A program made the translations under genes and the position numbers. A stretch of DNA of 32,000 bases from positions 1 through 32,000 of the forward strand of contig JACAFS010000001.1 in assembly GCA_013378385.1 (NCBI GenBank), in the 5' to 3' direction. The DNA comes from Nitrososphaerota archaeon (GTDB taxonomy: Archaea; Thermoproteota; Nitrososphaeria; Nitrososphaerales; UBA57). The notes below the pieces were generated by a model. The model saw nothing but the letters and a program-made list of their open reading frames with translations. It had not been told where the DNA came from and searched no databases. This document shows positions 2,144-29,968 of the stretch, one piece after another; position 1 is the stretch's first letter; every line of letters starts with the position of its first letter.

Positions 2144-3160
2144 TTATAATTCTAATTTCTTTTTGGCCATTTCTGCGCCAATTACCATATTTTTGAGTTT
2201 TGAAAACGACGTTTCTCTTGTTCTAGTTCTTAAACCACAATCGGGATTTACATGTATAAGATTCGGATTGTCTGTCATTTTTACTGCGTATAATATCCTA
2301 TCTCTTACTAATTCGGGAGGTTCTATTTTATCTACGTGAACGTCTAAGACTCCTAAACCAATCTCTTTTTTCTCATTATAATCTCTAAAAGTCTTTAAAA
2401 ATGACTCATATCCATTCCTGTTTGAATGCTTTGTACCTTTGTTCCATGAATCTCTGTTAGCAAATTCTAATTCATACTGATGATTCTTCATTTCAAGTAC
2501 TTCTGGATACATATTTGAATAATCTTCGCTGTAACATATATGAATTCCAAATTTCGCATTAATTCCTTTTATTGATTCATTAAATGAATCAACTACTAAC
2601 TTCATTTCCTCTGGATGTGTTGTCGCTGCAGGTTCATCAATTTGAATAAAATCTGCTCCTGTCTTAACTAAATCTCTAATTAATGGCCTGATTACTTTTC
2701 TCGCTAAGTCTATTGTAAAATCCTCTTTTGATTTGTAAGCCTCATTATAAGACCAATCTGCTAAAGTGTAAGCTCCAGTTATTGGCAGTTTGATCATTTT
2801 CTTAGCATTTTCTTTTACAAATAAAAATTCATCTATGTGATATGGTCCTTTATAATTAACTTTCTTTGTACATCTTCCTTTATTGTAGTATTTATTATCC
2901 CAAGATCTAATCTTTCCTGCTAATTTCAAACCCTCTATTCTTCTTATACTGTATTCATACATCTCTACTCGTCTTGCTTCTCCATCATATACTACATCTA
3001 AACCTATATCTTCAAATAATTTCAAATTCATTAACGCTACATCACTTCTGGCCGATTCCTTGATCTCATCTGACACATTCCTGTCTTGCAATAATTTAAC
3101 CAACCATCTTGGTTTTCTTATACTGCCTATCTCTTGAGTTGCAATAGGAAACTTTTTCAT
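2144..3160 (-). CDS. metE: Cobalamin-independent methionine synthase, catalytic (MetE C-terminal-type) barrel
   Basis: 338 aa with zinc-ligand pattern H-I-C (GIHICYSEDY), a downstream Glu (YELEFANRD) and PDCGL (VNPDCGLRTR). ATG at 3160-3158 overlaps the upstream gene's stop as ATGA. Confidence 0.8.
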   Translation of the reverse strand: MKKFPIATQEIGSIRKPRWLVKLLQDRNVSDEIKESARSDVALMNLKLFEDIGLDVVYDGEARRVEMYEYSIRRIEGLKLAGKIRSWDNKYYNKGRCTKKVNYKGPYHIDEFLFVKENAKKMIKLPITGAYTLADWSYNEAYKSKEDFTIDLARKVIRPLIRDLVKTGADFIQIDEPAATTHPEEMKLVVDSFNESIKGINAKFGIHICYSEDYSNMYPEVLEMKNHQYELEFANRDSWNKGTKHSNRNGYESFLKTFRDYNEKKEIGLGVLDVHVDKIEPPELVRDRILYAVKMTDNPNLIHVNPDCGLRTRTRETSFSKLKNMVIGAEMAKKKLEL

Positions 3161-4095
3161 AGTTTCATTACCCTGGTTTTTTCTTTTATTTGTTTCATTA
3201 TGTCTAATTTTTTACATGCAAATGTTTCTGGTATGAATTCAAAATCCCAACTTGGTATTACTGCTAGTGATGTTGGTTTAAATAATTCTTTAATATTTTT
3301 TAACTCTATAATAATCTCTGACGTTTTTTCCATTTTAGTATTCTTTGCATCTATCAAACCACAAGCTAATCCTTTGTTAATATCTGTTTGATCAAATCTG
3401 TCAATTTTTGAAGTAGTGAAATCTATACCTATTACATCCACAGGAAAATCTTGAAATGCATCTAACGTATCTGACACATCTGATCCCCATAAATTAAGAC
3501 ATGTTGTTACATCCAATCCTTTTACTATTTTTACCATTGCTTTTCTAATTATATCTAATTGTTCTTTTTCCTTTACTCGCGCCAATGACGGAGCGTTAAA
3601 CTGTATTAATTCTATATCTTTTTTTATTGAATTTAGTTCTTTTTTAATTATATCCGCAAATGCGTTTATTGCTTCTTCTTCCGATTTATAAAATTCATTT
3701 GCAGATAAATCATAGAATGTAAATGGATCCAATATATCTACCTTGGATTTTGATTTATTTGAAAATAAATCAAAACAAATGCTGTTCTTCAAAATTTTAC
3801 CTGAAGTTGTAATCTTGTTAGTAATTATTGGCTGGCGATAAAAAGTATTATTCTCATAGTATCTAGTTAGTGGGCCTTTTTCTATTCCTTTTAGATTGTC
3901 TGTGAATGGCCTTATGTTGTCATCCCAATCAATTAACGGATCCGTTATGTAGTTAAATTTATTTTTAGATTGAATTTTTAATAATCGTGATTTTTCTTTA
4001 TTAAATTGTTTTCGTAACGTTTTATCATATAATCTTGTTGATTCAATTAGTGTTTCATTTCGCGGATAAATTCCTGCAATCCAATAATCAATCAA
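3157..4095 (-). CDS. MetE N-terminal-type barrel protein (non-catalytic paralogue, no zinc ligands)
   Basis: 312 aa. IAGIYPRNETLIE and TRYYENNTFYRQPII resemble the MetE PRiG..REL and KWFDTNYHY segments. The H-x-C and DCG positions are replaced by LNLWGSD and IPSWDFEF. TTG start at 4095. Confidence 0.65.
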   Translation of the reverse strand: MIDYWIAGIYPRNETLIESTRLYDKTLRKQFNKEKSRLLKIQSKNKFNYITDPLIDWDDNIRPFTDNLKGIEKGPLTRYYENNTFYRQPIITNKITTSGKILKNSICFDLFSNKSKSKVDILDPFTFYDLSANEFYKSEEEAINAFADIIKKELNSIKKDIELIQFNAPSLARVKEKEQLDIIRKAMVKIVKGLDVTTCLNLWGSDVSDTLDAFQDFPVDVIGIDFTTSKIDRFDQTDINKGLACGLIDAKNTKMEKTSEIIIELKNIKELFKPTSLAVIPSWDFEFIPETFACKKLDIMKQIKEKTRVMKL

Positions 4096-4775: not shown

Positions 4776-5462
4776 ATGAAAGCGCTTATTTTAGCAGGTG
4801 GAATGGGAAAACGACTTAGACCACTTACCGACAATAAACCTAAGCCAATGATCCCTATCTCAAATAAGCCAATACTTGAATGGCAAATTATGTGGCTTAA
4901 ATCACATAATATTAGAGAAGTTGTTCTTTGCACAGGTTACATGAGTGAAAATATTACTGAATATTTTGGAGACGGGGAAAAATTAGGTGTTTCTATTGAA
5001 TATTCTAAAGAAGAAGAGCCTCTTGGTACGGGGGGCGCCTTGATGCAATCTGAGCCTTTTCTTAAAGAACATTATAACTTCATTGTTATGAACGGCGATA
5101 TCATGTCTAATATAGATCCAAATAGTTTAATTTCCAATCTTACCGATGGACTAATTGGAACTATTGCAGTAGTTGCCTTACGAAGTCCTTTTGGAGAAAT
5201 TGAAATTAAAGAAGAAGGTCTGATTTCTCGTTTTACTGAAAAACCAATACTTAACGATCATTGGATTAATGCCGGAATATATTGTTTCTCTAATAAAATT
5301 TTCAATTATTTATCAAGCGTTGGCAGTCTTGAATCTGACGTCTTTCCTTTACTTGCCCAAGAAAATAAATTGTCTGCAATAAAACAGAATAATGTGAAAT
5401 GGCGTTCTATTGATAGTCATAAAGATATAGAAGAAGCTCAAAAAGAATTCGTTACTGAATAA
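4776..5462 (+). CDS. Sugar-1-phosphate nucleotidylyltransferase (short form, no LbH domain)
   Basis: N-terminal signature MKALILAGGMGKRLRPLTDNKPKPMIPI and EEPLGTGGAL. 228 aa. Confidence 0.85.
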   Translation: MKALILAGGMGKRLRPLTDNKPKPMIPISNKPILEWQIMWLKSHNIREVVLCTGYMSENITEYFGDGEKLGVSIEYSKEEEPLGTGGALMQSEPFLKEHYNFIVMNGDIMSNIDPNSLISNLTDGLIGTIAVVALRSPFGEIEIKEEGLISRFTEKPILNDHWINAGIYCFSNKIFNYLSSVGSLESDVFPLLAQENKLSAIKQNNVKWRSIDSHKDIEEAQKEFVTE

Positions 5463-6800
5463 TCATTTTCCAATAGTCAGTATCTTTAGTTTCTCAAACT
5501 TAGATTTGTTTAATATATTTCTTCCATCAAAAATTAATGGTTTCTTTTTTGATTTCTTAATTATATAATCTTCTGTAATTTCTTTATATTCATCATGATC
5601 CGTGGCAATTATTATTATATCCACTCCCGATATTACTTTGTCTAAATCCTTACTTAATTTGACCTCTTTCGGCAATAGTGGATCATAACTAAAGAACGGA
5701 TCATGAACTCTTGCCTTTATGTTATTTTGAATCAGTTCATCAATAATGTCATAGGTTGGAGAAATACGATTGTCTGCTACATTTCCTCTAAAACTTAATC
5801 CTAAAATTAATGCCGTTAATTTCTTTTTATTGTTAATTTCTGACATTATTCGACTGACCGAATATTTTGGCATCCCTTCATTCGTATACCTTCCTAATAA
5901 TGCAAAATTCATATCTATTCCTTTGTCTACAGCTGTTTGTGTTAATAACCAAGGATAAACTGGAATACAATAACCTCCTACTCCTATTCCAGGTTTATGC
6001 AGATGACTATATGGTTGTGAATTTGCAGCTTCTCTAACTTCCCAATAATCTATTCCTAAATTCTCACAAAATCTTGATAATTCATTTGCTAAAGCAATAT
6101 TTACATCTCTGTATAAACCTTCAATTAATTTTTCAGCTTCTGCAGCTTCAGTAGTTGACATTGTTATTGGTTTCTTCGATGAAATCACTTCAAACATTTT
6201 ATTTGCAATCTTTATACTGATTTCTCCAGCTCCAGATAATATTGGCGGATAATTATTTTCTATATCACTAATTGCTTGACCTGCAGATATTCTCTCTGGC
6301 GTGTATATTAAAAAGAAATCCTTTTCAACTTTTAACTTACTTTTATTTTCAATCCATTTAATAATTTTATTAGAAGTCCCAATTGGCACTGTCGGAGTTA
6401 TAATTATAATGTCGTTCTTTTTTAATCCTGTAATTATATCTTCTACTGCTGAATACAAAAATCTTAAATCTGCAGACCTTTTGTCTAATCCTACGGGCAC
6501 TGATATAATTTTTATATCAGAATATTTTGATGCCCATTTCCCATTTGTAGTTGCTGTTAATCTTTTACTATTTATTCCCTCAATAAATGCTTCTCTAGCT
6601 TTTGGTTCCGAATTAGTAATTTTCTTATTATTGATATTATTAACTAATGTATTCTTCTTATCCACCGCAATAATTGATGCTCCTGCTCTTAACCATGTTG
6701 ACGCAATTGCAGTTCCCACAAATCCAATTCCATATATCGCTATCTTTTTGTTCCCTAATTTGATATTTCTTGGCAGTTCTTGTATTTGCTTCTTATTCAC
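5463..6800 (-). CDS. NDP-sugar 6-dehydrogenase (UDP-glucose/GDP-mannose dehydrogenase family, UDP-ManNAc/GlcNAc dehydrogenase-like)
   Basis: Rossmann motif IAIYGIGFVGTAIA, PERISAGQAISD, catalytic-Cys motif GIGVGGYCIPVYP. GTG start at 6800. Stop abuts the stop of the convergent gene at 5462/5463. Confidence 0.85.
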   Translation of the reverse strand: MNKKQIQELPRNIKLGNKKIAIYGIGFVGTAIASTWLRAGASIIAVDKKNTLVNNINNKKITNSEPKAREAFIEGINSKRLTATTNGKWASKYSDIKIISVPVGLDKRSADLRFLYSAVEDIITGLKKNDIIIITPTVPIGTSNKIIKWIENKSKLKVEKDFFLIYTPERISAGQAISDIENNYPPILSGAGEISIKIANKMFEVISSKKPITMSTTEAAEAEKLIEGLYRDVNIALANELSRFCENLGIDYWEVREAANSQPYSHLHKPGIGVGGYCIPVYPWLLTQTAVDKGIDMNFALLGRYTNEGMPKYSVSRIMSEINNKKKLTALILGLSFRGNVADNRISPTYDIIDELIQNNIKARVHDPFFSYDPLLPKEVKLSKDLDKVISGVDIIIIATDHDEYKEITEDYIIKKSKKKPLIFDGRNILNKSKFEKLKILTIGK

Positions 6801-6864
6801 GATTAATATTATTCAAAACATTTTAATTAAGTTTCTTACTAGCTTACACCAGTTTAAAAGAAAA

Positions 6865-8256
6865 ATGACCAAAAATAATGATAAAACTTTGTTAATTGTT
6901 CTTCCATATGGCATAGGTTGGAAATCAATCATTAATGAGGAAAATCTAGAAATGCTCACAAATTCTGGCCTAAAAATTATTCTACTTTGTGAACCAAATA
7001 TGATTGAATCTAATAACCCAAACGTGATTATTAAAACTCTCAAGAAAATTCCACGTACAAAGTCTGAAATTGCCGTTGGTTTGTTGCGAAATTATGTATT
7101 TGCAGATACTAGTAAACCTCATTCCGAAACTCTTAAAATAAAAATTTCTGAATTAGATTCTTCACATACTTTTCTATCCATTATTCGAAAATCTATCGGC
7201 AAATTCTTTGCAAGAAGTACAACTATTAAAAATATTCTTGCATGGTCTGATTCTGTATTCTTTAGTAATTCTGAATATGACGATTTATTCTCTAAATTTT
7301 CCCCTGATTTCATCTTTGTAACATATCCTTTTTCATTTTATACATATCCTATCTTAAGACACGCACATAAATCTAAGATTCCAATTCTTGGTTATGTTCC
7401 AAGTTGGGATAATCTTACATCTAAATGGGAAGTTCCTGTTAAATTAAATAAATTGATTGTTTGGAATAATATAATGAAACAAGAAGCAATAAATTTCCTT
7501 GGCTATTCCGATGATTCCGTTTCAATTACTGGAGTTCCACAATTTGATATACATTCAAATCGCTCTTCCTTACTTGATCGTGGAAAATTCATCAACAACT
7601 TACACGGAGATGAAAATAAGAAGATTTTATTATATGCAACTGGCACTGCACAACTTTCTGATTCCGAACCATTTATTGTTAAAATGATTTATGATATGAT
7701 TCAAAACAACAAATTTGACCATCCTTGTCAACTCCTGTTGCGTGTTCATCCACGCCGTAGTTTATCTGACTTTGACGATCTGATTGATAAACCTGACGTC
7801 TTAATTCAGACCCCAGGAAAAGCGTCAAAGGAGTTCCAAGATTCAGGGTATGTATGGAAATCGGATTTCACTGATTATTCTACATTGTCTAACACATTAT
7901 ATCACGCAGACGTTATGATTAATGTTGCATCTACTATTACTATAGAATCTTGTTTATTTGATACTCCTGTAGTAAATATTGGATTTGACGCTAATCTCGA
8001 TCTTGATTTTAATCGTTCCGTTAAACGCCATTTTCAATATTCGCATTATTTAGATATTGTAGAATCTAATGGTGTAAAAATTGCTAATTCAGAACAAGAA
8101 CTAAGTGAATTTATCAATCGTTACCTCAATGACCCTACTCTCGAATCTACTGGACGTAACCTAATTGTTGACAATCAGTGCTCTTTTAGAGATGGCAAAT
8201 CTTCTGAACGCCTGTTAAGATATATAATAGATTTTACTAAAGAATATTCAGTTTAA
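6865..8256 (+). CDS. GT-B-fold glycosyl/glycerophospho-transferase-like protein (TagF/MurG/MGDG-synthase-like C-terminal half), family not assignable by eye
   Basis: 463 aa from ATG 6865. The upstream part of the 6301 ORF is antisense to the dehydrogenase gene. Segments KILLYATGTAQ, LLLRVHPRR and LYHADVMINVASTITIESCLFDTPVVNIGFD resemble the TagF-type ILYAPTxR / HP / aDxLITDYSS...kPii pattern. Confidence 0.5.
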   Translation: MTKNNDKTLLIVLPYGIGWKSIINEENLEMLTNSGLKIILLCEPNMIESNNPNVIIKTLKKIPRTKSEIAVGLLRNYVFADTSKPHSETLKIKISELDSSHTFLSIIRKSIGKFFARSTTIKNILAWSDSVFFSNSEYDDLFSKFSPDFIFVTYPFSFYTYPILRHAHKSKIPILGYVPSWDNLTSKWEVPVKLNKLIVWNNIMKQEAINFLGYSDDSVSITGVPQFDIHSNRSSLLDRGKFINNLHGDENKKILLYATGTAQLSDSEPFIVKMIYDMIQNNKFDHPCQLLLRVHPRRSLSDFDDLIDKPDVLIQTPGKASKEFQDSGYVWKSDFTDYSTLSNTLYHADVMINVASTITIESCLFDTPVVNIGFDANLDLDFNRSVKRHFQYSHYLDIVESNGVKIANSEQELSEFINRYLNDPTLESTGRNLIVDNQCSFRDGKSSERLLRYIIDFTKEYSV

Positions 8257-8273
8257 ACTGGTTGTGTGATGAT

Positions 8274-9956
8274 ATGACAAAAAAATTTAAAGGAATTCTT
8301 GTTTCTCCTCAAACTGGAATCAAGGACGTACTGGAAATAATTAATCAAGCACCCCATAATAATCTGCCTTCTGGTATTGCATTGATTGTTGACGATTCTA
8401 ATTCCTTACTCGGTATTGTTACTGATGGAGATATAAGACGCGCATTACTTGAAAATCATAATCTAAGCGAAACAGTTGACGTTATTATGAATAAATCACC
8501 TCTTACTATTCATGAATCTGATTTTACCGATAAAACGAATACCTTATCGATTCATCCTGACAAACTGAAAACAATAGATCATAATATATTGATTGTGAAT
8601 GACAATAATCAAGTTGTTGATATTATAAACAAATCGCAATTAGTTCAAAAAAATACCCCTTCCATTGCTGTTATTGGTCTCGGATATGTCGGTTTAACTC
8701 TTGCAGTATCTCTTGCAGAGGTTGGTTTCACAGTAACTGGGGTAGATTCTAATGAAGAAATCGTCAAAAAATTAAATCAAGGAACTCCTCATATACACGA
8801 AATTGGCTTAGATTCTCTTTTAAAATTCCACGTTGGAAAAAACCTAAAAATCCAAACTACATCTTCTGAATCCAATTCTGACGTATACATTCTGTGTGTT
8901 CAGACTCCAATTGATGATAACAACGAACCAATTCTTGACTATCTTAATTCTGCCACTGAATACGTTGCAAATAATCTGTCTAAAAATAATCTCGTTATTA
9001 TTAGATCTACTGTTCCTATTGGAACTACTAGAAATAATATTATTCCAATTCTTGAGAACTCTTCTGGTTTAGATTCTAATAGTGATTTCTATGTCGCTTC
9101 AGCTCCTGAACGTACCCTTGCAGGTAAAGCATTAAAAGAAATTCGCGAATTACCACAGATTATTGCAGGATTTAATTCCACTAGTTCTCAACTTGCTAAT
9201 GGTATATTTAACAAATTGACCCCTACCATTATTAATGTCGACTCTCTTGAAGAAGCCGAACTGATTAAACTTATGGATAACACATTTCGTGATATGATTT
9301 TTGCTTATTCCAATCAAATTGCACTTCTTGCTGATAACTACGGTATTGATACGTCTAAATTAATTCAAGCTGCTAATGAAGGCTATCCTAGAAATAACAT
9401 ACCACAACCAAGTCCTGGTGTTGGCGGAATTTGTCTTAAAAAAGATCCACATATCTTAATTTCTAGTTCTAAAAATACTGGTTATATTCCAAAACTTACA
9501 GAACTTGCTAGACTTGTTAATGAAAGCATGTCCGATCACATCATCAAAAAAATCGAACGTTTTAGCAAATCACAAAATAAGGATGTTTCTAAATTGAAAA
9601 TCTTTGTTGTTGGTTTTGCATTTAAAGGAAACCCTGAAACTTCCGATACTCGTCAATCATCTACTCTTGATGTAACTAATAAGCTATCTAAGATTTCTAA
9701 TAATGTATTTGGTTATGATCCTGTAGTTACTGAAACCCAAATTGACTCCTTCAATGTCAAATCTACTAGTATTGAAGAAGGATTCAAAAACGCTGATTGT
9801 GTATTGATTATGAATAATCATGATTCTTATTCTAAATGGGATGTTTATTCTTTACTATCTAAAACAAATCAACCATGTATGTTCTTTGATGGTTGGAGTT
9901 TGTTTGGACGTAAAATGATTGAAAAAATAGAATATGTAGACTATCAAACAATTTAG
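8274..9956 (+). CDS. CBS-pair domain fused to an NDP-sugar 6-dehydrogenase (UDP-glucose/GDP-mannose dehydrogenase family)
   Basis: N-terminal ~125 aa carry two CBS-like motifs (GIALIVDDSNSLLGIVTDGDIRRALL; HNILIVNDNNQVVDIINKSQL). These are followed by IAVIGLGYVGLTLAVSLAEVGFTVTGVD, APERTLAGKALKE and catalytic-Cys GVGGICLKKDP. ATG 8274 preferred; TTG 8262 is possible. Confidence 0.85.
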   Translation: MTKKFKGILVSPQTGIKDVLEIINQAPHNNLPSGIALIVDDSNSLLGIVTDGDIRRALLENHNLSETVDVIMNKSPLTIHESDFTDKTNTLSIHPDKLKTIDHNILIVNDNNQVVDIINKSQLVQKNTPSIAVIGLGYVGLTLAVSLAEVGFTVTGVDSNEEIVKKLNQGTPHIHEIGLDSLLKFHVGKNLKIQTTSSESNSDVYILCVQTPIDDNNEPILDYLNSATEYVANNLSKNNLVIIRSTVPIGTTRNNIIPILENSSGLDSNSDFYVASAPERTLAGKALKEIRELPQIIAGFNSTSSQLANGIFNKLTPTIINVDSLEEAELIKLMDNTFRDMIFAYSNQIALLADNYGIDTSKLIQAANEGYPRNNIPQPSPGVGGICLKKDPHILISSSKNTGYIPKLTELARLVNESMSDHIIKKIERFSKSQNKDVSKLKIFVVGFAFKGNPETSDTRQSSTLDVTNKLSKISNNVFGYDPVVTETQIDSFNVKSTSIEEGFKNADCVLIMNNHDSYSKWDVYSLLSKTNQPCMFFDGWSLFGRKMIEKIEYVDYQTI

Positions 9957-10840
9957 TTTCTAGCTATTTCTCTTAATTCTAATATATTATTCATAAGGTC
10001 CTCATCTGAATAATTATGCCTCTTTTTATGCGCTTCAATAATTAAATGCGGTAGGTTTATTTTTTCTTTAATCTGTAAAAGTATTTCTTTTATTGGAATA
10101 TCTCCTTTGCCCACAAGTTTATGCAAATCTTCAGACCCGTCATTGTCATTAATATGTACCTCATTTACTTTATCCGCCAACGTCTTAATCATTACAGTAA
10201 TATAATCATCCTGTTTTAATTTCATTTTAGTATAGTAAAGATGCCCGATATTCATAATTACGCCTATTTCATCTGGTATTTTATCAAAATCTTCCACTCT
10301 TGAAAATAAATACCTTCTTTCAGGCCGAAAGTTAAAATTCTCTATACTTAATTTAACATCTCCGTCTGCTATGTCAATTAATCTATTCAGTGAGTCGATT
10401 GAATTATTGTATGCCTCTTCATAACTAATACTATCCTGTGAATCTAACGGAGCAAATTCCTGTTTTTGAGACAAAATGTTTGTTGCATAACCTCCATGAA
10501 ACGATATATTTTCCACTCCTATGTCTTTTGCAAATTCAATATTTTTCTCTATACAATTAATACTATTTTTTCTAACTTGTTCATCTGAACTTGCAATATT
10601 TATGTAGAAATCATCTGAAGGCAACCAAATACTCTGATGTATAGTGTAAATTACATCATTTTCATCTCTATAATTATTCAATATGTTAACTAATTCGTTA
10701 TATTTGGTATTGTTTTTTCCTGCTCCAATTTGAATATATGGCCGCATTTCACATCTCGTAAATATGTCGATTAATTTCTTTACTTTATTTTCAATTGATT
10801 CTCCATGATACCCATAATATGAAGTAGAAGCACCTATCAT
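9953..10840 (-). CDS. Xylose-isomerase-like TIM-barrel protein (sugar phosphate isomerase/epimerase family)
   Basis: 295 aa. Strand-end metal/catalytic-type motifs ISFHGG, LSIENFNF, MNIGHLYY, VHINDNDG, IIEAH. Confidence 0.65.
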   Translation of the reverse strand: MIGASTSYYGYHGESIENKVKKLIDIFTRCEMRPYIQIGAGKNNTKYNELVNILNNYRDENDVIYTIHQSIWLPSDDFYINIASSDEQVRKNSINCIEKNIEFAKDIGVENISFHGGYATNILSQKQEFAPLDSQDSISYEEAYNNSIDSLNRLIDIADGDVKLSIENFNFRPERRYLFSRVEDFDKIPDEIGVIMNIGHLYYTKMKLKQDDYITVMIKTLADKVNEVHINDNDGSEDLHKLVGKGDIPIKEILLQIKEKINLPHLIIEAHKKRHNYSDEDLMNNILELREIARN

Positions 10841-11837: not shown

Positions 11838-12530
11838 ATGGTTGATAAGCGCATTCTTGGTATTATTCCTGCTCGAGGAGGGTCAAAAACCATTCCTAGA
11901 AAAAATATTAAAAATATCTTGAATCGTCCTCTTATATCTTATACAATTGTCGAAGCATTAAAATCAAAAACTCTGTCTAATCTTATTGTATCTTCAGAAG
12001 ACGACGAAATTATTCGTATCTCTAAATCTTATGGCGCATCTGTTCCATTTATTCGTCCTGATTCATTGGCACAAGATGATTCATTAGCTATTGACGTTCT
12101 TACTCATGCAATACTGGAACTCGAGAAAAAAGAAAATATTACTTATGATGCAGTAGTAATGCTACAACCTACCACTCCCTTACGTACCGCAGACGATATT
12201 GATTATTGCATAACTAAATTGTTCGAATCTGATTATGATTCTGTTATTAGTGTTGTCGATGTTGGTGCCATACATCCTCATCGAATGAAAAAAATTGTTA
12301 ACGATGAATTAGTAGATTATGCAGATGAAACTGTAGAAAATATGCCAAGACAATCTCTTCCTTCTGTGTATATAAGAAACGGAGCAATTTATGCTACTAA
12401 ACGTGATATTCTCATAAATTCAAAATCACTCAAAGGAACTAAGAGTCATGCATATATTATGCCTCCTGAACGTTCACTAAATATCGATGAAAATCTTGAT
12501 CTCAGATTCACTGAACTACTAATGAAAGAC
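11838..12530 (+). other. Domain: CMP-sugar-acid synthetase (cytidylyltransferase) module of the fusion ORF
   Basis: Residues 1 to ~231; motifs as listed for the full ORF. The boundary is approximate. Confidence 0.7.
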
Positions 12531-13802
12531 TTTGATTGGTCACATATTAAAGAAATTAATTCTATTTCTGTACCTTGGAAATCTTGGTATGGTAATGAAT
12601 CATTAAATCTGACTTTTCCTGAATCTTGGAATATTAATATCTCTCAAATGAACGACGCATCAGCAATCTCTGACGAAGATATCTCGTCTTCAATTTCCAA
12701 TCCGATTAATTCAGAAAAATTATCTGTTCTTGCTAAACAAAAAAAATCTGTCTGTATTGCAGTTGATGATTTAACTAAACCTACTCAAGCCTTCAGAATT
12801 ATCCCTTTTATTTTAGACGAACTTCATCAGTCTGGCTTATCTGATGAAAATATCTATTTCATTATCAGTACAGGAACTCATAGATCTCTAACTCACGATG
12901 AATTGTGTAAGAAACTAGGAACAAAAATCGTTTCTAAATATAAAATATATTGCCATAGCGCTTATCAAAACAATAAATATCTAGGAGAAACATCTGCTGG
13001 CACTCCTGTATACATAGATAATTTATACCTTCAAGCAGATCTTAAAATTGGAATTGGGACTTTAATGCCACATCCATATGCTGGTTTTAGCGGTGGTGGA
13101 AAAATAGTATTACCTGGTCTTGCAGGCATCGAATCTATTGACGTAAATCATAAACCTGTCAATAAATCTCTTCAAGGTAAAATTGGACAAGTTGAAAACA
13201 ATAGCAGAAGAGCTGACATAGAAGAGGCAGCAAATATGGCTGGGTTGGATTTCATTGTTAACACTATTTCTAATTCTCTTGGCGATACTGCTTCTATATA
13301 TTCAGGAAATCCTGTCGATGTATTCTCCACTGCCTCAAAGAAAGCTATTGAAGTTTATTCCACAAAGGTTCCGTACAACATAGACATTGGAGTTTTCAAT
13401 GCTTTTCCTCGCGACACATGGTTCTTACTTGCATTAAATTCACTCAATGTATGGGGTTCTCGAGATTCAGATAAAGAAATTGTCAGAAAAGGCGGTACAA
13501 TTGTCGTAATCACATCTGCATCTGAAGGAATTGGCGAACATGGATTAGTAGGTAAAGGAATGATTCACCATATTCGTAGAGATAAACATGGAACATTTGG
13601 CGGTCCACTTCAAGGTCGAAATCTTATATTCTATTGTCCTACAATTAATCAAAATTATATCTACGATCATTATTCAGAGGAAGTTAAAATTTTCAATAAC
13701 TGGGATTTACTCATTCGTGAATTACAAAAACAGCATGGAAATGACACTGACGCAGTAGTATTTCCTAATAGTTCTCTACAAATTGATTCAAATCTGGTTT
13801 AA
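11838..13802 (+). CDS. Fusion protein: NeuA-type acylneuraminate/ulosonate cytidylyltransferase domain + LarA-type (nickel-pincer nucleotide) racemase/epimerase domain
   Basis: Uninterrupted 654 codons. The N-terminal domain has GIIPARGGSKTIPRKNI, MLQPTTPLRT, IRNGAIYA. The C-terminal domain has NPINSEKL, CIAVDDLTKP, STGTHRSLTHDEL, PHPYAGFSGGGKIVLPG, VNH, GGTIVVITSASEGIGEHG, matching LarA as I recall it. Confidence 0.8.
   Translation: MVDKRILGIIPARGGSKTIPRKNIKNILNRPLISYTIVEALKSKTLSNLIVSSEDDEIIRISKSYGASVPFIRPDSLAQDDSLAIDVLTHAILELEKKENITYDAVVMLQPTTPLRTADDIDYCITKLFESDYDSVISVVDVGAIHPHRMKKIVNDELVDYADETVENMPRQSLPSVYIRNGAIYATKRDILINSKSLKGTKSHAYIMPPERSLNIDENLDLRFTELLMKDFDWSHIKEINSISVPWKSWYGNESLNLTFPESWNINISQMNDASAISDEDISSSISNPINSEKLSVLAKQKKSVCIAVDDLTKPTQAFRIIPFILDELHQSGLSDENIYFIISTGTHRSLTHDELCKKLGTKIVSKYKIYCHSAYQNNKYLGETSAGTPVYIDNLYLQADLKIGIGTLMPHPYAGFSGGGKIVLPGLAGIESIDVNHKPVNKSLQGKIGQVENNSRRADIEEAANMAGLDFIVNTISNSLGDTASIYSGNPVDVFSTASKKAIEVYSTKVPYNIDIGVFNAFPRDTWFLLALNSLNVWGSRDSDKEIVRKGGTIVVITSASEGIGEHGLVGKGMIHHIRRDKHGTFGGPLQGRNLIFYCPTINQNYIYDHYSEEVKIFNNWDLLIRELQKQHGNDTDAVVFPNSSLQIDSNLV
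12565..13799 (+). other. Domain: LarA-like (lactate racemase family) module of the fusion ORF
   Basis: Residues ~243-654. Equivalents of LarA His108 (THR, nt 12867-12884), His174 and Lys184 (PHPYAGFSGGGK, nt 13068-13103) and His200 (VNH). The boundary is approximate. Confidence 0.7.
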
Positions 13803-14917
13803 CTAATTTGTATCTGCCCTAAATTTTCCTTAATCTTTCTCATAAATGCATCCCAACTAAATTCCTCCACTGCTCTGTTTCTCGCTGACATGCCCATTTT
13901 CATTCTCTTTTGATTATTTTCTAGCAGATCAAATATCTTATTCTCCCATTGATCTAAATCATCTTGTAACAAGTATCCCGTTATATCGTTAATTATAGTT
14001 TCTTTTGGCCCGCCTGTATTGAATGCAATTACCGGTTTTCCACATGCCATTGCTTCAATTGGCGCAATTCCGAAGTGTTCTTCTTTGGGCGTATATAAAA
14101 ATACACTACAATTCTTATATGAGTTCACTAATTCTGAATCTGTTACATCTGTATGAATCTCTACATTATCGATTAAATCTAATTCTTTAATTTTCTTATT
14201 TAATTCATCTAAATGCCATTCAAATCCTGGTTGTTTTACTCCGATAATGATTAATTTTATTTTGTTATTTCTTCTCTTCATCTTTTTAATTAATTCTATT
14301 GAGAATGTAAGATTCTTATTTGGAACAATTCTATTTACTGTCAGAATATATTTATTATCTGTTTCATTTAGTGTGAATTTATTTATATCAACTCCTGGAA
14401 AGATAATTGTACTATTTCTGTTAAATTTCTCATGTATTGCACTTTTTGTAAAATCAGAATTGCATAATATTGAATTTGTTTCTTTGAATCCTTTATTCTC
14501 TTCTCGATCTATTGGAAAATGTAATAATCTTCTGATTAAATCACTTTTTTTAACTAATAATTGTTCTGGATGATGACAATATATCATTGATGGTTTGTAT
14601 TTGTCTGCCAGATAGTAATTCGAACTAAACACAAATAAATCAGGTTTAAATTTATCAATTCCAGCTTTCATCATCTCCTTACTTTCTCGGTATGCAGTTA
14701 TTGCTCTAAATCTTCCAAAATAATCTAGTTTTCCATTACTAACTATGACATTTTCTTTTCTAAAATCTTCAAAAGCCTTTTCTTCATCGTAAATAGCAGT
14801 AAAATAAGCAACTTCATGACCTAGTTTCTTTAATGAATCTCCCATTCCTAGCACTAATCTTTGCGCACCAGTCTGCATAGATATATCATAATGTATTATT
14901 GCTATTTTCATAATCAT
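13799..14917 (-). CDS. Glycosyltransferase, GT4-like (GT-B fold)
   Basis: E-x7-E region EEHFGIAPIEAMACGKPVIAFNTGGPKETI. 372 aa. ATG overlaps the upstream gene's stop as ATGA. Confidence 0.85.
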   Translation of the reverse strand: MIMKIAIIHYDISMQTGAQRLVLGMGDSLKKLGHEVAYFTAIYDEEKAFEDFRKENVIVSNGKLDYFGRFRAITAYRESKEMMKAGIDKFKPDLFVFSSNYYLADKYKPSMIYCHHPEQLLVKKSDLIRRLLHFPIDREENKGFKETNSILCNSDFTKSAIHEKFNRNSTIIFPGVDINKFTLNETDNKYILTVNRIVPNKNLTFSIELIKKMKRRNNKIKLIIIGVKQPGFEWHLDELNKKIKELDLIDNVEIHTDVTDSELVNSYKNCSVFLYTPKEEHFGIAPIEAMACGKPVIAFNTGGPKETIINDITGYLLQDDLDQWENKIFDLLENNQKRMKMGMSARNRAVEEFSWDAFMRKIKENLGQIQIS

Positions 14918-15816
14918 TCTACTTGTTTTCTATATATGTTTAATAGTTTCTCAATTACTTTCTTCCTGTCATGATTATCAATTATGAATTGCCTATTCTC
15001 TTTTGATTCCTTTTTTCTTTCAATTTCATCTAACAATTCAATTACTCGCTCATTTACATTTTCTTTATGTCTGTAATCTATAGTTACCAGACCACAGGCC
15101 ATGGCTTCTAAACATGTTTTACTGTATGACGATACTCCTTTCGTAAATATTCTATCAATATATATATCATATTCCTTCAAATTTTCATGCAATTCTAGAT
15201 ATGAAAATGGTCTTCTGTCATGTATGTCTACTTTAATGCCATTCTTTTCCATAAGTTCAATTAAATACTTTGGCACTCTTTCATACCATGAATTAAATCC
15301 AATTGCTTTTAATTGAGCATTTTGTTTTACCTTCGGACAAAATCTAGTTGTATCTATTGGATTAGGTAAATACTCTGCATCTTGTCTAATTGTTTTTGCT
15401 AATTTCAACATTTCTGGCGTTGATACAATCACTGAATTCGCATATTTCAAATTTCCTTCAATAATTTTACTCCATCTTGTTAAGTCTTTACTATTTTTTT
15501 TAAACTCTTCATCATACAATCCAAATAAATCTGTTCCATGACAATGCAATACATTAATTTCTTTCTTAATTAATCGTACAAAAAATGCATCTTGTAATGC
15601 ATAATTCACGTGTATTATTCCTTTCGCTTTAATCGCATTTACAAAAGGATTTATGATTTTCCCATACACTGAGTATAGTGCATTCGTATTTACATTTGGA
15701 CCTGCATAATTTCTCGGTAAATATTTAACATCCATATTTACCTCTCTGAGTCCATTTGCTAATTCATAACCTACCCAAGCTGCATCATTCAGAATTGTTA
15801 CTTGATTGTTGTTCAA
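14914..15816 (-). CDS. Glycosyltransferase-like protein (short GT-B)
   Basis: 300 aa. KTCLEAMACGLVTID resembles the GT-B C-terminal helix motif. Translationally coupled to the GT4 gene. TTG start. Confidence 0.5.
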   Translation of the reverse strand: MNNNQVTILNDAAWVGYELANGLREVNMDVKYLPRNYAGPNVNTNALYSVYGKIINPFVNAIKAKGIIHVNYALQDAFFVRLIKKEINVLHCHGTDLFGLYDEEFKKNSKDLTRWSKIIEGNLKYANSVIVSTPEMLKLAKTIRQDAEYLPNPIDTTRFCPKVKQNAQLKAIGFNSWYERVPKYLIELMEKNGIKVDIHDRRPFSYLELHENLKEYDIYIDRIFTKGVSSYSKTCLEAMACGLVTIDYRHKENVNERVIELLDEIERKKESKENRQFIIDNHDRKKVIEKLLNIYRKQVE

Positions 15817-15868
15817 TATAGATTATTTACAGATATTCTTTATAACATCTACCAATATTGCTGTTTGT

Positions 15869-16843
15869 TTATTCTAATAATTTTTTAAACCATGAAATTG
15901 TTATGTCTAAACCTTTATCGATACTATATGTTGGTTTCCATTTTAACAATTTCTCTGTTTTACTACAGTCAGCTTCTAATCTTTCTAAATCTGCCGCCCT
16001 TTCTGATTCATAAACTAGTTCAGACGAAGACCCTGATATGTCCCTAATCTTCTTTGCAAGATCTAATATGCTTGTTTGAATACCTGTTCCTATATTGAAT
16101 ACTTCTCCTTGTGTTTTTTCCCTTTCTTTCATTACTCTTACATATGCTTCTACTGCGTCTTTTACATACATCAAATCTCTAGTTTGTTTCCCATTTCCAT
16201 GAATCTTGATATTCTCATTTTTTATCGCTCTAGTTGCAAATTCTGGCACTACTGCTGCATATCCTCTATATGAATTACTCTGATTTTCACCATACGTATT
16301 GAAATTTCTAATTACTGAAACTGGATATTTATACCATTCATGTAATACCATGCATTGTTTTTCTGCAGCCAATTTTGTTGCCGCATAAAAACTTCTAGGA
16401 CGACAAGGATGATCCGTATCCATTGGAGTATATACAGGATTGCCATATACTTCTGGCGAAGATGCATAAATTAGAAATGGTTTACTTTTAGTTTTTAATA
16501 ATTCTTGACATAGACTAAACGTTCCTTTTTCATTTGATTCAAAATATTCCATTGGCTTCTGCATTGATTCTGGAATTGATACTAATGCGGCCAGATGAAT
16601 TATCGTGTCAATTCCTGCTTCGTCAATTTTTTCCGATTTTAAATCTCTGTAGTCCATCTCCCAATTTACAAACCTCTCATTAAACTTCTCTTTGTCTTCA
16701 ATTATATCAAACGGATCTACTGGAAAATCTTCTAATCTATGTAGATTGTCTACTCCATATATTTCTGCATCGGTTTCCTTTAATAATAAATCAATTAAAT
16801 GCGAACCATAAAAACCTGAAGAACCTGTAACTAATATTTTCAT
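15869..16843 (-). CDS. NAD-dependent NDP-sugar epimerase/dehydratase (extended SDR)
   Basis: MKILVTGSSGFYGSHL (GxxGxxG), SSPEVYG, YAATKLAAE (YxxxK). 324 aa. Confidence 0.85.
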   Translation of the reverse strand: MKILVTGSSGFYGSHLIDLLLKETDAEIYGVDNLHRLEDFPVDPFDIIEDKEKFNERFVNWEMDYRDLKSEKIDEAGIDTIIHLAALVSIPESMQKPMEYFESNEKGTFSLCQELLKTKSKPFLIYASSPEVYGNPVYTPMDTDHPCRPRSFYAATKLAAEKQCMVLHEWYKYPVSVIRNFNTYGENQSNSYRGYAAVVPEFATRAIKNENIKIHGNGKQTRDLMYVKDAVEAYVRVMKEREKTQGEVFNIGTGIQTSILDLAKKIRDISGSSSELVYESERAADLERLEADCSKTEKLLKWKPTYSIDKGLDITISWFKKLLE

Positions 16844-16885
16844 TTTATTACTCTACTTCTTCATACATAATAAATTCTTTTCTAA

Positions 16886-17584
16886 TTAAATTATCAATCT
16901 GTGACATTCATATGCTTCAGCATATTTTACACCTATCTCGGTACCTCTAAGCTCTGCTATATTCTCAATTACTCTTGGTGTTCTGGGATGGTTCTTACTT
17001 CTTACTTGAGACGAATACAAAGATAATGCCTTGATTTTCTTTTTTAATTCTTTTGATATATCAACATAAAAATTAGGATGAAATCTTTTTCTAGTCCAAT
17101 TTGTTTCAGGTTGTTCATACGATAATACCATATTTGTAATATCTTTCTCATTATTTCTAACAGGCCTACATGCTGTAAAACTAGCTTTGGCAACAGCAAC
17201 ATGATCCTGATTTGTTGAACCTATAAAAGGAATTGCCACTATGTCTGGTTTTACTGTTGATAATGAAACCTCACCTTTCTCAATAGTGTTTATCAAATTC
17301 TTTTGTGGAACTTTGTCGAGTTTAAGGTGATATTCGTCACCTGCCCATGCTAAATCAAATGAATCTACCTTCAGATATCTCATTACTTTATTCATTTCTA
17401 GTATTCTTTTCTCGGAGTTACTGGTTCCTCCATATTGTTTGATATTTCCCACTGTAAAACATAAAACATGAACTTCTCCACCCCCTGCTTTAACCTTTGA
17501 AATTAAACCTCCACATCCAAGGACTTCATCATCAGGATGAGGGGCAATAACTAATAATTTCTTGTTCTTGTAATTTATTGTCAT
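16886..17584 (-). CDS. PIG-L/LmbE-family N-acetyl-sugar deacetylase
   Basis: LVIAPHPDDEVLGCGG and NQDHVAV motifs. 232 aa. ATGA overlap with the upstream methyltransferase gene. Confidence 0.85.
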   Translation of the reverse strand: MTINYKNKKLLVIAPHPDDEVLGCGGLISKVKAGGGEVHVLCFTVGNIKQYGGTSNSEKRILEMNKVMRYLKVDSFDLAWAGDEYHLKLDKVPQKNLINTIEKGEVSLSTVKPDIVAIPFIGSTNQDHVAVAKASFTACRPVRNNEKDITNMVLSYEQPETNWTRKRFHPNFYVDISKELKKKIKALSLYSSQVRSKNHPRTPRVIENIAELRGTEIGVKYAEAYECHRLII

Positions 17585-18339
17585 TTCCTAGCTGATATTC
17601 CCATTACTACTTTTTTTGTTATAAACTTATTTTCTTTTACGAATATGTCTTCGATTACTTTCTCAAATTTATTCTGTTCTTCCTTTTCAAATAACGTATA
17701 AGATTTCCAGTATCTTAATAATTCATCTTTACTAGGAAATGTGACAGGATTCTCAAAAATATCTATTTTTACTTCTCCAAATAATGTTTCAAAATATGGC
17801 AAAGCTTTTGACTCCATAAAATTATTGTGCATATTATATTCTTCAGGAAGCTTTTCAAAAGTTTCATGTATGTCGGTTAATTCTTTGTTATTTCTCTTGA
17901 TTGGCCCACAAACAAAACATTTACCTCCTTCTTTTAACTTATCATATATGTCATTAATTGTTTTTTTATAATTTTTTGAATAATATAAACCAAAACAACA
18001 CAAAATTAAGTCGAATTGAGCATTTTTGAATTCACTATCTATATATTCCATACTTCCATTTTTTAAAAATACTTTCTCTCTTTCTACATTTGATTCAATT
18101 TCATTTAGAAGATCTTTTGATATGTCTAATCCCGTGACTGATCCATTTTCATTAATTGCTTCACTTATTGGAATTAGTTGTTTTCCATTTCCACATGCTA
18201 TGTCTAATACTTGGTCATCTTCTTTAATCTCTAATTTCGGAATTATCCAGTCATTTATTTCGAATTTCGCATAATTTGCATGTGCAGCTAGCCTATTATT
18301 CAATGCATTGCTGGAATTTTGCGCTCTTACCAATTTCAA
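17581..18339 (-). CDS. Class I SAM-dependent methyltransferase
   Basis: Motif I VLDIACGNGKQ, post-I GLDIS, LILCCFGLYY. TTG start is required to retain motif I. Confidence 0.8.
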   Translation of the reverse strand: MKLVRAQNSSNALNNRLAAHANYAKFEINDWIIPKLEIKEDDQVLDIACGNGKQLIPISEAINENGSVTGLDISKDLLNEIESNVEREKVFLKNGSMEYIDSEFKNAQFDLILCCFGLYYSKNYKKTINDIYDKLKEGGKCFVCGPIKRNNKELTDIHETFEKLPEEYNMHNNFMESKALPYFETLFGEVKIDIFENPVTFPSKDELLRYWKSYTLFEKEEQNKFEKVIEDIFVKENKFITKKVVMGISARK

Positions 18340-29125: not shown

Positions 29126-29929
29126 TCATTTATGATAATCCATTTCATTCAATATATTATTTCCTAATATTTCCGTGCACGCTGTAACGTATGATGCCCC
29201 TTCTTTGGATAATATATTGAAATCATTTTGTTCATTGAGGAATTCTATGAATATTCCTGAACACTTCCCAATATACATTGCAGGTAGACAATCAAACGTT
29301 CTCAACTGTTTTGAAGGTGCAATAAAAGCATCTATCTTACCTGCTGCCACGAATACGTTCTCTATTATTGCAGAACCTAGTATTCTCTGCGCCTTAGTTT
29401 TTTCAAATATTTTCTGCATATGTTCATAAGATTTCCTTGCATTTCCTGATCTTATATTCAAATCTACAGCAATTACTGCTTCATTTAGTTTTTCTATGTT
29501 GTTTGGTTTTATTGTTGAATCATTGACTGTTGCTTTTTGCAGCTCACCCAAATACAAATCTCCTTGAATTATATCTATTACTCCTGATGCAATTATATCT
29601 GAAAATTTTTCTCCTTTCGCAATTGCAATAGTTGAACTAAAAAATGGAATCTGCCTTACCGAATTTAAACTTCCATCTAACGGATCAATTAATACGAATA
29701 TGTTGTTATTTCCTTCAATTATTCCTGTTTCTTCTGATACAATTGTCGCTCCTGGTATGTCCTTCTTAATTTCTTTTAGTATAGTTTTTTCTGCCAATAC
29801 ATCAATTTCATATTGCATATCCCCAAATGCATTTTTATCTAATTCACTATGATTTCCTTTAAAGTATCTATCTTTAATCGTATTTTGTGCTTTTATTAGT
29901 GTCTTTTCTATAATTTCCGAATAATTCAA
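29126..29929 (-). CDS. suhB: Inositol monophosphatase / fructose-1,6-bisphosphatase family protein
   Basis: VSEETG, LIDPLDGSLN and a C-terminal FDCLPAMYI region (the WD..A position). TTG start. Confidence 0.8.
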   Translation of the reverse strand: MNYSEIIEKTLIKAQNTIKDRYFKGNHSELDKNAFGDMQYEIDVLAEKTILKEIKKDIPGATIVSEETGIIEGNNNIFVLIDPLDGSLNSVRQIPFFSSTIAIAKGEKFSDIIASGVIDIIQGDLYLGELQKATVNDSTIKPNNIEKLNEAVIAVDLNIRSGNARKSYEHMQKIFEKTKAQRILGSAIIENVFVAAGKIDAFIAPSKQLRTFDCLPAMYIGKCSGIFIEFLNEQNDFNILSKEGASYVTACTEILGNNILNEMDYHK

Positions 29930-29968
29930 TTATATATTCATTGTTCAAAGAATCTTAAAAGCTTAATA

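Follow-up and report, generated by a model that had tools for sequence, protein, structure and literature searches.

A LarA-like domain fused to a NeuA-type cytidylyltransferase in a glycan gene island of marine archaea: a conserved pairing and its possible place in ulosonic acid chemistry

Why should a protein fold known from nickel-dependent racemases be built into the same polypeptide as a sugar-activating enzyme? The question is raised by a 32,000-nt stretch of DNA from a Nitrososphaerota archaeon (GenBank assembly GCA_013378385.1, contig JACAFS010000001.1, positions 1 to 32,000 of the forward strand; hereafter the window), within which a preliminary description of the sequence had recognized one uninterrupted open reading frame (ORF) of 654 codons, 3 nt behind a NeuB-type gene, that joins a NeuA-type cytidine monophosphate (CMP)-sugar-acid synthetase to a LarA-type domain over the whole lactate racemase fold. 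The ORF listing agrees with that account, and every peptide motif quoted in it is present in the translation. As discussed in more detail below, the NeuA-LarA pairing is real, conserved and uncharacterized, and it belongs to gene clusters for glycan synthesis.

The division of the protein into two halves is borne out by Pfam, NCBIfam, Protein Data Bank (PDB) and Foldseek comparisons alike. Pfam places CTP_transf_3 on residues 8-185 (E 8e-20) and Lar_N on residues 251-441 (E 1.5e-54); the C-terminal LarA family that had been expected along with these two was not obtained in the Pfam search of the fusion protein. In NCBIfam, PseF matches the N-terminal half (residues 8-229) at 148 bits against a cut-off of 206, below equivalog level, and four LarA-family models (LarAH6, LarAH5, LarA and LarAH10) match residues 251-570 at 185-239 bits, the scores of 239, 222, 199 and 185 bits standing against equivalog cut-offs of 500, 462, 460 and 540, none of which is passed. 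A PDB sequence search pairs residues 6-230 with Vibrio cholerae NeuA (6ifd, 2e-29), and residues ~251-570 with the malate racemase Mar2 (1.6e-43), LarA_Ip of Isosphaera (3e-41) and LarA_Lp of L. plantarum (5huq, 5e-32). An AlphaFold2 model of the fusion built from 54 relatives (predicted local distance difference test score, pLDDT, 92.4; predicted template-modeling score, pTM, 0.87) superposes on LarA along the full chain, as had been anticipated. By Foldseek the model covers the entire LarA chain (9eia) at a target template-modeling (TM) score of 0.83 over 425 residues, and its N-terminal half matches NeuA 6ifd at a target TM of 0.90, with KdsB reaching only ~0.65-0.7. The LarA-fold domain is complete, running from residue ~250 to 654; its last 85 residues have no sequence match and are recognized as LarA by the predicted fold alone. 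The predicted two-domain fold and the Lar_N family match together place the C-terminal half in the LarA superfamily.

A union of this kind could in principle arise when an assembly or base-calling error joins two genes. Two-gene forms do exist in relatives, and in two of the related loci (L021 and L022) the halves are divided by one in-frame stop, located where the fusion has its linker. Against an artefact stands the finding that NCBI, JGI, Logan and ENA all record the identical 654-aa protein, within a 215-member 90% cluster, and that a near-identical variant is present on 87 contigs. Orthologues 93-96% identical to the fusion occur in six independent marine metagenome-assembled genomes (MAGs) of Nitrososphaerales/Nitrosopumilales (L007-L010, L014, L015), and fused forms from many independent MAGs and fosmids extend down to 45% identity, in Thaumarchaeota and Anaerolineae. 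Carriers of the gene include MAGs with the WGS prefixes JAKZTE01, DAHJ01 (UBA223), JABUBF01, CAZKFJ01 and PAVW01, and the split pair is present on the complete chromosome OZ252113.1. The predicted model, moreover, is confident through the domain junction. An artefact is thus vanishingly improbable, and the idea is refuted for practical purposes: orthologues come in both fused and separate forms, and the fusion is no error. A search of 50%-identity representatives returned one fused protein (P0007) among the best 150, the others being stand-alone halves. Database names are automatic only, UniRef calling the fosmid copies "N-acylneuraminate cytidylyltransferase" and NCBI a "DUF2088 domain-containing protein".

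What the LarA-like half has kept of the racemase active site, and what it has given up, emerges from an alignment of the window protein with 56 relatives and with partial LarA (L. plantarum) and Mar2 sequences (57 aligned sequences, 28 fused and 29 split, in a 42-94% identity range). In LarA, Lys184 tethers the cofactor, a nickel-pincer nucleotide (NPN); His200 is a nickel ligand and Arg75 also binds NPN, while Asp72, His108 and His174 are catalytic. His108, His174, Lys184, His200 and Asp72 correspond to H348, H412, K422, H438 and D311 of the fusion, and all five are invariant (57/57), so the His/His/Lys/His set named in the preliminary description holds throughout; the Arg75 position is Lys in the window protein and K or R throughout the clade. 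The substrate side is another matter. Structures of LarA_Ip with substrate show the carboxylate held by Arg, Gln295, Lys298 and both histidines, with Tyr294 on the 2-OH, and Desguin et al. (2020) count Lys298 among the catalytic residues of the LarA family. In the fusion these positions read L530 for Tyr294 (L/I across the clade), L531 for Gln295 (L/Q/M) and N534 for Lys298 (N/S), so that the Tyr294-Gln295-Lys298 clamp on carboxylate and 2-OH, typical of alpha-hydroxy-acid racemases and epimerases, is not kept. The alpha13-alpha14 substrate element of LarA is deleted as well, and in its place is a basic loop, R580-R581-D582-K583-H584, conserved within the clade and absent in more distant relatives. 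Judged from the alignment, the clade has preserved the side of the site that faces the cofactor and rebuilt the one that faces the substrate. The earlier suggestion that the domain inverts the carbinol next to a carboxylate is weakened by this result, because it relies on the canonical alpha-hydroxy-acid site, whose C-domain half is gone.

The NeuA half retains the P-loop GIIPARGGSKTIPRKN, MLQPTTPLRT (the QPTxPLR motif) and NGAIY. Its metal motif, which is D-x-D (D209/D211) in N. meningitidis NeuA, reads N215-I-D217 instead of D-I-D (12480-12488, with N215 at 12480-12482), the second Asp being kept. All 22 LarA-partnered cytidylyltransferases of loci L001-L023, fused or adjacent, carry N-[IV]-D (22/22), and paralogous cytidylyltransferases of the same loci read DIH or NIH; by these sequences N-[IV]-D would be a signature specific to the LarA-partnered NeuA. 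Relatives of the NeuA half (~50% identity) are found in other fusions (P0097, P0183, P0233 and P0277), one of them, P0097 (482 aa), with a methyltransferase domain, and the subfamily is prone to carrying sugar-editing domains. The thought that the NeuA half might substitute for the CTP-dependent step of LarC in cofactor synthesis was set aside, since the genes that regularly accompany the pair are those of NeuB or DAHP synthase and of glycosyltransferases.

The distribution of the pair was followed through 85 related loci and the window, 86 loci in all. A CTP_transf_3 partner occurs only in the clade at least ~44% identical to the window LarA domain. More distant LarA-like clades (42% identity or less) are without NeuA and NeuB, and the stand-alone LarA-like proteins of Thermodesulfobacteriota, Latescibacterota and Gemmatimonadota have no NeuA, synthase or other pair-associated partners. 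In archaeal loci the gene is fused and always lies behind NeuB, with genes for a triosephosphate isomerase (TIM)-barrel protein, a CBS-domain dehydrogenase and a TagB-like protein nearby. Bacterial forms are fused in Anaerolineae and are adjacent genes in SAR324, L005 and Acidobacteriota. In Omnitrophota (L021, stop at 3615-3617) and Planctomycetales (L022, 10727-10729) the NeuA-like and LarA-like parts share one frame with a single stop between them, which could reflect a recent fission, read-through or a sequencing error. Chloroflexota have the reversed gene order, the LarA-like gene lying beside an x-SAF-CTP_transf_3 protein, and in Anaerolineales (L029-31) it is directly downstream of a short NeuB. 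Fused and split forms are intermingled on a rough, midpoint-rooted neighbor-joining tree without support values, a pattern suggesting that fusion or fission took place more than once.

Most loci whose flanks are long enough have a phosphoenolpyruvate (PEP)-condensing synthase near the pair. This synthase is NeuB in all archaeal loci and several Chloroflexota; in L005 it passes the cut-off for 3-deoxy-D-arabino-heptulosonate 7-phosphate (DAHP) synthase (340 vs 335 bits), and L026 and L063 encode cluster-mates of this protein. In L005 the glycan cluster adjoining the NeuA/LarA pair (L005:5474-8513) encodes the DAHP synthase together with shikimate-dehydrogenase-like and GFO/UDP-GlcNAc-3-dehydrogenase-like proteins. 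Shikimate-dehydrogenase-like cluster-mates recur in L026 and L063, and no dehydroquinate synthase was seen in the glycan clusters of the three loci. This gene content suggests that an L005-type locus makes a heptulosonic-acid-derived sugar. CMP-sugar-type transferases also accompany the pair, represented in the window by a protein that weakly matches the BFO_1060 family and in L029-31 by a KpsC/S-like Capsule_synth protein, and other recurring partners are a GT2-CTP_transf_3 fusion, ATP-binding cassette (ABC) exporters, polysaccharide deacetylases and the KpsC/S-like protein. All told, the constant unit is a PEP-condensing ulosonic-acid synthase, a CMP-transferase and a LarA-like protein, within glycan clusters.

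Individual neighborhoods show features of their own. A ~460-aa fusion of GT2 with a second CTP_transf_3 lies beside the pair in seven bacterial loci (L001:12022-13416, L005:3315-4688, L019, L020, L024, L026 and L063). Directly downstream of the LarA-like gene in two Chloroflexota (L024:1654-3204, 517 aa; L027:4447-6249, 601 aa) is a protein with an N-terminal region of no family match followed by SAF and CTP_transf_3, possibly a degenerate NeuB-SAF-NeuA fusion. Within 10 kb of the split pair of SAR324 (L003/L023:1-7142) there is neither NeuB nor DAHP synthase; the pair adjoins split transketolase-like and E1 dehydrogenase subunits, a NUDIX protein, a short-chain dehydrogenase/reductase (SDR) and a nucleotidyltransferase, a setting that possibly represents a different route to a sugar acid. 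Outside the clade, the LarA-like genes of Latescibacterota and Gemmatimonadota (L060, L065-L084; 30-33% identity) consistently lie between a xylose-isomerase-like TIM barrel on their upstream side and a downstream SDR, and the barrel is of the same family as the one adjoining NeuB in the archaeal island. A 14.8-kb contig of a Thermoproteota MAG (L086) carries two LarA homologues (2482-3759 and 9587-10831) among AstE/AspA-like deacylases, Ldh_2, an aminotransferase and an amidohydrolase, a catabolic-looking and unrelated context.

How does the fusion compare with systems already described? LarA, Mar2, LarA_Ip/Sar and the gluconate 2-epimerase GntE share with it the two-domain fold and the equivalents of Asp72, His108, His174, Lys184 and His200, and the fusion presumably uses the same hydride-shuttling cofactor as they do. 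That said, the fusion is 23-30% identical to these proteins, the value varying with method and reference, and departs from them in the clamp residues, the Lys at Arg75 and the basic loop described above; its clade resides in glycan biosynthesis clusters with a cytidylyltransferase, whereas known LarA homologues reside in clusters for organic-acid catabolism. Among the groups described by Desguin et al. (2020), LarAH Group 23 (for example Deba_0774 and NIDE0743) gives the best full-length match (31% over 414 aa, E 7e-72); it has the same shortened C-domain and several members that likewise lack Lys298. Group 23 differs in having no conserved gene context and no association with NeuA or NeuB, and the fusion clade lies outside the 2020 data set. 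There is no mention of a cytidylyltransferase fusion or of a NeuA/NeuB context in Desguin 2020, Urdiain-Arraiza 2024 or recent structural papers, and the searchable literature holds no relevant link between lactate racemase and nonulosonic acids; nor does the fused architecture turn up there, in line with the preliminary description, to which no pathway coupling such a domain to CMP activation was known.

The NeuA half, for its part, shares its fold (target TM 0.84-0.91), P-loop, QPTxPLR and NGAIY with the NeuA proteins of N. meningitidis and V. cholerae, PseF and CMP-Kdn synthetase (26-36% identity), to which it is nearer than to KdsB. It differs from NeuA and PseF in scoring below the PseF cut-off, in N-I-D for D-I-D, and in its extra LarA-like C-terminal extension of 400 aa. 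Bifunctional NeuA proteins are known from E. coli K1 and group B Streptococcus, which carry a C-terminal O-acetyl esterase, and vertebrate CMAS has a phosphatase-like C-domain. The fusion would follow the same design, a CMP-sialic acid synthetase followed by a sugar-editing domain, but with an appended nickel-pincer fold, which is another class of enzyme. As a mechanistic analogy only, SDRs of the UDP-galactose 4-epimerase type use a bound hydride acceptor to oxidize a carbinol and return the hydride to the other face; here the cofactor would be NPN and not NAD+, and the fold is unrelated.

Taken together, the two domains with their folds, the residues kept for cofactor binding and catalysis, and the conserved linkage of the genes with NeuA and PEP-condensing synthases bring us to a proposal whose chances we put at about even: the fusion would be a bifunctional enzyme for 2-keto-3-deoxy sugar acids (ulosonic or nonulosonic) that serves a surface glycan of marine Nitrosopumilales, with its LarA-like half acting as an NPN-mediated hidden-redox isomerase on the sugar acid or the CMP ester derived from it. 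The adjacent NeuB homologue would condense PEP with an aldose to give an ulosonic acid, and the N-terminal domain with CTP would turn this into the CMP ester. The LarA-fold domain would hold NPN through Lys422 and His438, the His348/His412 pair would serve proton-coupled hydride transfer, and a secondary alcohol group, whether in the sugar acid or in the CMP ester, would be transiently oxidized before the hydride is returned, most probably yielding the epimer, which the TagB-like transferase would attach to the glycan. In this scheme we infer the loading with NPN, the substrate, the carbon attacked, epimerization as the outcome and the order of activation and isomerization. The occurrence of both NeuB-type and DAHP-synthase-type synthases suggests acids of differing chain length, so that action on the shared C1-C5 part would be favored. 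CMP-ulosonates are labile, and given this lability and the basic loop R580-H584 the CMP ester would be a reasonable target, and the fusion in turn a reasonable arrangement. A bolder form of the proposal, tentative and on the whole rather doubtful, is that this would be the first nickel-pincer enzyme to act on carbohydrate building blocks outside the alpha-hydroxy acids, an epimerase or hidden-redox isomerase receiving its CMP-activated ulosonic acid by channeling from the fused synthetase on account of that lability.

A number of observations weigh against an isomerase of this kind. Every characterized LarA homologue acts at C2 of a free alpha-hydroxy acid, and the keto or hemiketal C2 of ulosonic acids would make them a new substrate class. 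With Asn at the position of Lys298 and Leu at those of Tyr294 and Gln295, the published LarA mechanism may not apply as such, and LarAH23, the representative of Group 23, was inactive on the acids tested. On the NeuA side, the first Asp of the metal motif is Asn. The full gene set of the Neu, Leg and Pse pathways comprises a 4,6-dehydratase, an aminotransferase, an acetyltransferase, a hydrolysing 2-epimerase, a synthase and a CMP-transferase. The archaeal island contains no aminotransferase and no hydrolysing 2-epimerase of these pathways, its share of the set being the NeuB-like synthase, the NeuA domain and a LegB-like SDR only; with these two missing the sugar cannot be named. Finally, larB, larC and larE are found neither in the window nor in any of the 86 loci.

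This last point speaks for the idea that the LarA-like half is free of NPN here and works as a binding, scaffolding or non-redox module on a functional CMP-sugar synthetase, an idea consistent also with the loss of part of the classical site and with the presence in Nitrosopumilus of Nmar_0290, a degenerate LarA-like protein of LarAH Group 12 in which every key residue is missing. No ORF with a PP-loop (SGGxDS) occurs in the 86 loci either; the conserved neighbors of the distant LarA-like clade are FtsH, SDR, a peptidase, an E2 component, a major facilitator superfamily (MFS) transporter and the TIM barrel, with no Lar proteins among them, and two further LarA-homologue contexts (P0090, P0104) are without larB, larC and larE. 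Across archaea and bacteria there is nonetheless no variation at all in Asp72, the two catalytic histidines, the lysine that tethers the cofactor or the residue that ligates nickel, which is hard to explain without a cofactor, and Nmar_0290 is unrelated at sequence level, giving no significant match to the window LarA domain. Homologues of LarB, LarC and LarE are moreover reported in Nitrosopumilales MAGs: according to the supplement of Kerou 2021, a deep-ocean NP-alpha MAG has a LarE(COG1606)-LarC(COG1641)-Mdh-LarB(COG1691) cluster, which means that an NPN maturation pathway exists in Nitrosopumilales, and sediment clades have larB/larC. The "LarA" of that study (32% identity to the L. plantarum enzyme) may not be the same homologue as the window domain. 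A cofactor-free module is accordingly quite improbable in our judgment.

An ordinary racemase of lactate, malate or glycerate, supplying one enantiomer of an N-glyceroyl- or lactyl-type substituent for a nonulosonic acid, is decidedly unlikely too, even though the best family scores are those of the malate and lactate racemase models, the residue at Arg75 stays basic (K/R), both histidines are kept, and glyceroyl-bearing nonulosonic acids such as Pse5Am7Gra of Tannerella exist. Those scores amount to less than half of every equivalog cut-off, the holders of carboxylate and 2-OH (Tyr294, Gln295, Lys298) are replaced and alpha14 is deleted, the archaeal island has no aminotransferase or acyltransferase to install such a group, and the fusion to a cytidylyltransferase would be left unexplained. 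We regard as unlikely, on a less severe scale, that the LarA-like half uses NPN for some other hydride chemistry, be it an internal redox isomerization (hydride C4<->C2) or a transient oxidation enabling elimination or rearrangement, for which NAD+ serves in dehydroquinate synthase and SDR dehydratases. The lost Lys298, a feature taken up by Desguin et al., would fit such chemistry, as would the DAHP synthase and shikimate-dehydrogenase-like protein adjoining the pair in L005, L026 and L063, and the AP_endonuc_2 TIM barrel that neighbors both the fusion clade and the distant LarA-like clade. The two histidines, one for each face in racemases and epimerases, are invariant, however, and known single-face variants drop one of them.

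Were the hidden-redox isomerase of an ulosonic acid or its CMP ester to hold true, the NPN cofactor would be extended to nucleotide-sugar or ulosonic-acid chemistry, and nickel would be needed for surface-glycan synthesis in abundant marine ammonia-oxidizing archaea and several bacterial phyla. We know of no settled biosynthesis for several epimeric ulosonic acids, 4-epi-legionaminic acid for example, and the fusion could supply the missing route. The protein is met with frequently among pelagic marine Thaumarchaeota, to judge from its 215-member cluster and the near-identical variant found on 87 contigs, and it is therefore relevant to the surface glycans of a lineage abundant in the ocean, and possibly to how much nickel that lineage requires. 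The existing labels "lactate racemase" and "NeuA" have led to metabolic conclusions such as lactate use, which would be wrong for the fusion clade.

Table 1. Coordinates of the fusion gene, its domains and key residues, and the neighboring genes of the glycan island
Feature	Position in window	Strand	Remarks
Whole fusion ORF	11838..13802	+	ATG 11838, TAA 13800-13802; 654 aa; ORF listing, domain searches, predicted fold
NeuA/PseF-type cytidylyltransferase domain, aa 1-231	11838..12530	+	Domain and fold matches
Linker, aa ~232-250	12531..12587	+	Conserved LarA-like N-terminus WKSWYGNE starts at linker end
LarA-like N-domain (cofactor side)	12588..13355	+	Carries D311, K314, H348, H412, K422, H438
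LarA-like C-domain (remodeled substrate side)	13356..13799	+	L530/L531/N534 at 13425-13439; basic loop ~13575-13589
D311 (Asp72)	12768-12770	+	Alignment
K314 (replacing Arg75)	12777-12779	+	Alignment
H348 (His108)	12879-12881	+	Alignment
H412 (His174)	13071-13073	+	Alignment
K422 (Lys184)	13101-13103	+	Alignment
H438 (His200)	13149-13151	+	Alignment
NeuB-family PEP-condensing synthase, 313 aa	10893..11834	+	No SAF domain
Xylose-isomerase-like TIM barrel (AP_endonuc_2)	9953..10840	-	Neighbor of NeuB in every archaeal locus of sufficient flank
CBS-domain nucleoside diphosphate (NDP)-sugar 6-dehydrogenase	8262..9956	+	Best match UDP-N-acetylmannosamine (UDP-ManNAc) dehydrogenase, below cut-off
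TagB-like protein, candidate transferase for CMP-activated sugar acid	6865..8256	+	Weak, sub-cut-off BFO_1060-family match
Second NDP-sugar 6-dehydrogenase	5463..6800	-	
Sugar-1-phosphate nucleotidyltransferase	4776..5462	+	Left edge of island
GT4, GT4-like, SDR epimerase/dehydratase (best match LegB-like), PIG-L deacetylase, methyltransferase	13799..18339	-	Rest of island

The island itself (Table 1) is compact. The ATG of the fusion follows the TAA of the NeuB-family ORF after 3 nt (TTC), a gap so short that the two genes are probably co-transcribed, and the fusion stop codon overlaps the 3' end of the convergent GT4 gene. A TATA-like TTATATTT lies ~25-30 nt upstream of the TTG start of NeuB, within a divergent intergenic region of 52 nt. 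The island NeuB scores 156 bits against the NeuB cut-off of 400 and is without the SAF (antifreeze-like) domain, of which Arg314 is reported essential in canonical NeuB. For the TagB-like protein, the mechanical ORF 6301-8256 (651 aa) overlaps the dehydrogenase gene of the opposite strand by 500 nt; because orthologues of 460-489 aa align from MTKNNDKT onward, the start at 6301 is over-extended and the true one lies at ~6865 (463 aa). The protein scores 54 bits against a cut-off of 200 for the BFO_1060 glycosyltransferase family. To this TagB-like family belongs the pseudaminic/legionaminic acid transferase of Tannerella forsythia, which uses N-acetylmannosaminuronic acid (ManNAcA) as its acceptor.

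Two NDP-sugar 6-dehydrogenases are indeed encoded in the island, as first described, and both score highest against UDP-ManNAc dehydrogenase models, below cut-off. The uronic acids that they might make had been linked to the LarA domain, a link that has since lost ground. With their UDP-ManNAc-type matches and their place next to the TagB-like protein, a weak match to the family whose Tannerella member has ManNAcA as acceptor, the more ordinary explanation is that they provide a uronic-acid acceptor sugar, and they are absent from most bacterial loci that carry the NeuA/LarA pair; uronic acids from these enzymes were therefore set aside as LarA substrate.

The island bears no signature of horizontal transfer, its GC content of 0.315 being set in flanks of 0.325-0.33 (window GC 32%), and neither an Rfam nor a tRNA scan of the window gave a match. 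Genes for class I lysyl-tRNA synthetase (LysRS), Nop5, fibrillarin and DUF373 mark the window as archaeal. At its start are Rieske and cytochrome b genes and a split pair for cobalamin-independent methionine synthase (2144-4095), and toward its end (29126-31057) genes for an inositol monophosphatase-family protein and myo-inositol-1-phosphate synthase are divergent neighbors.

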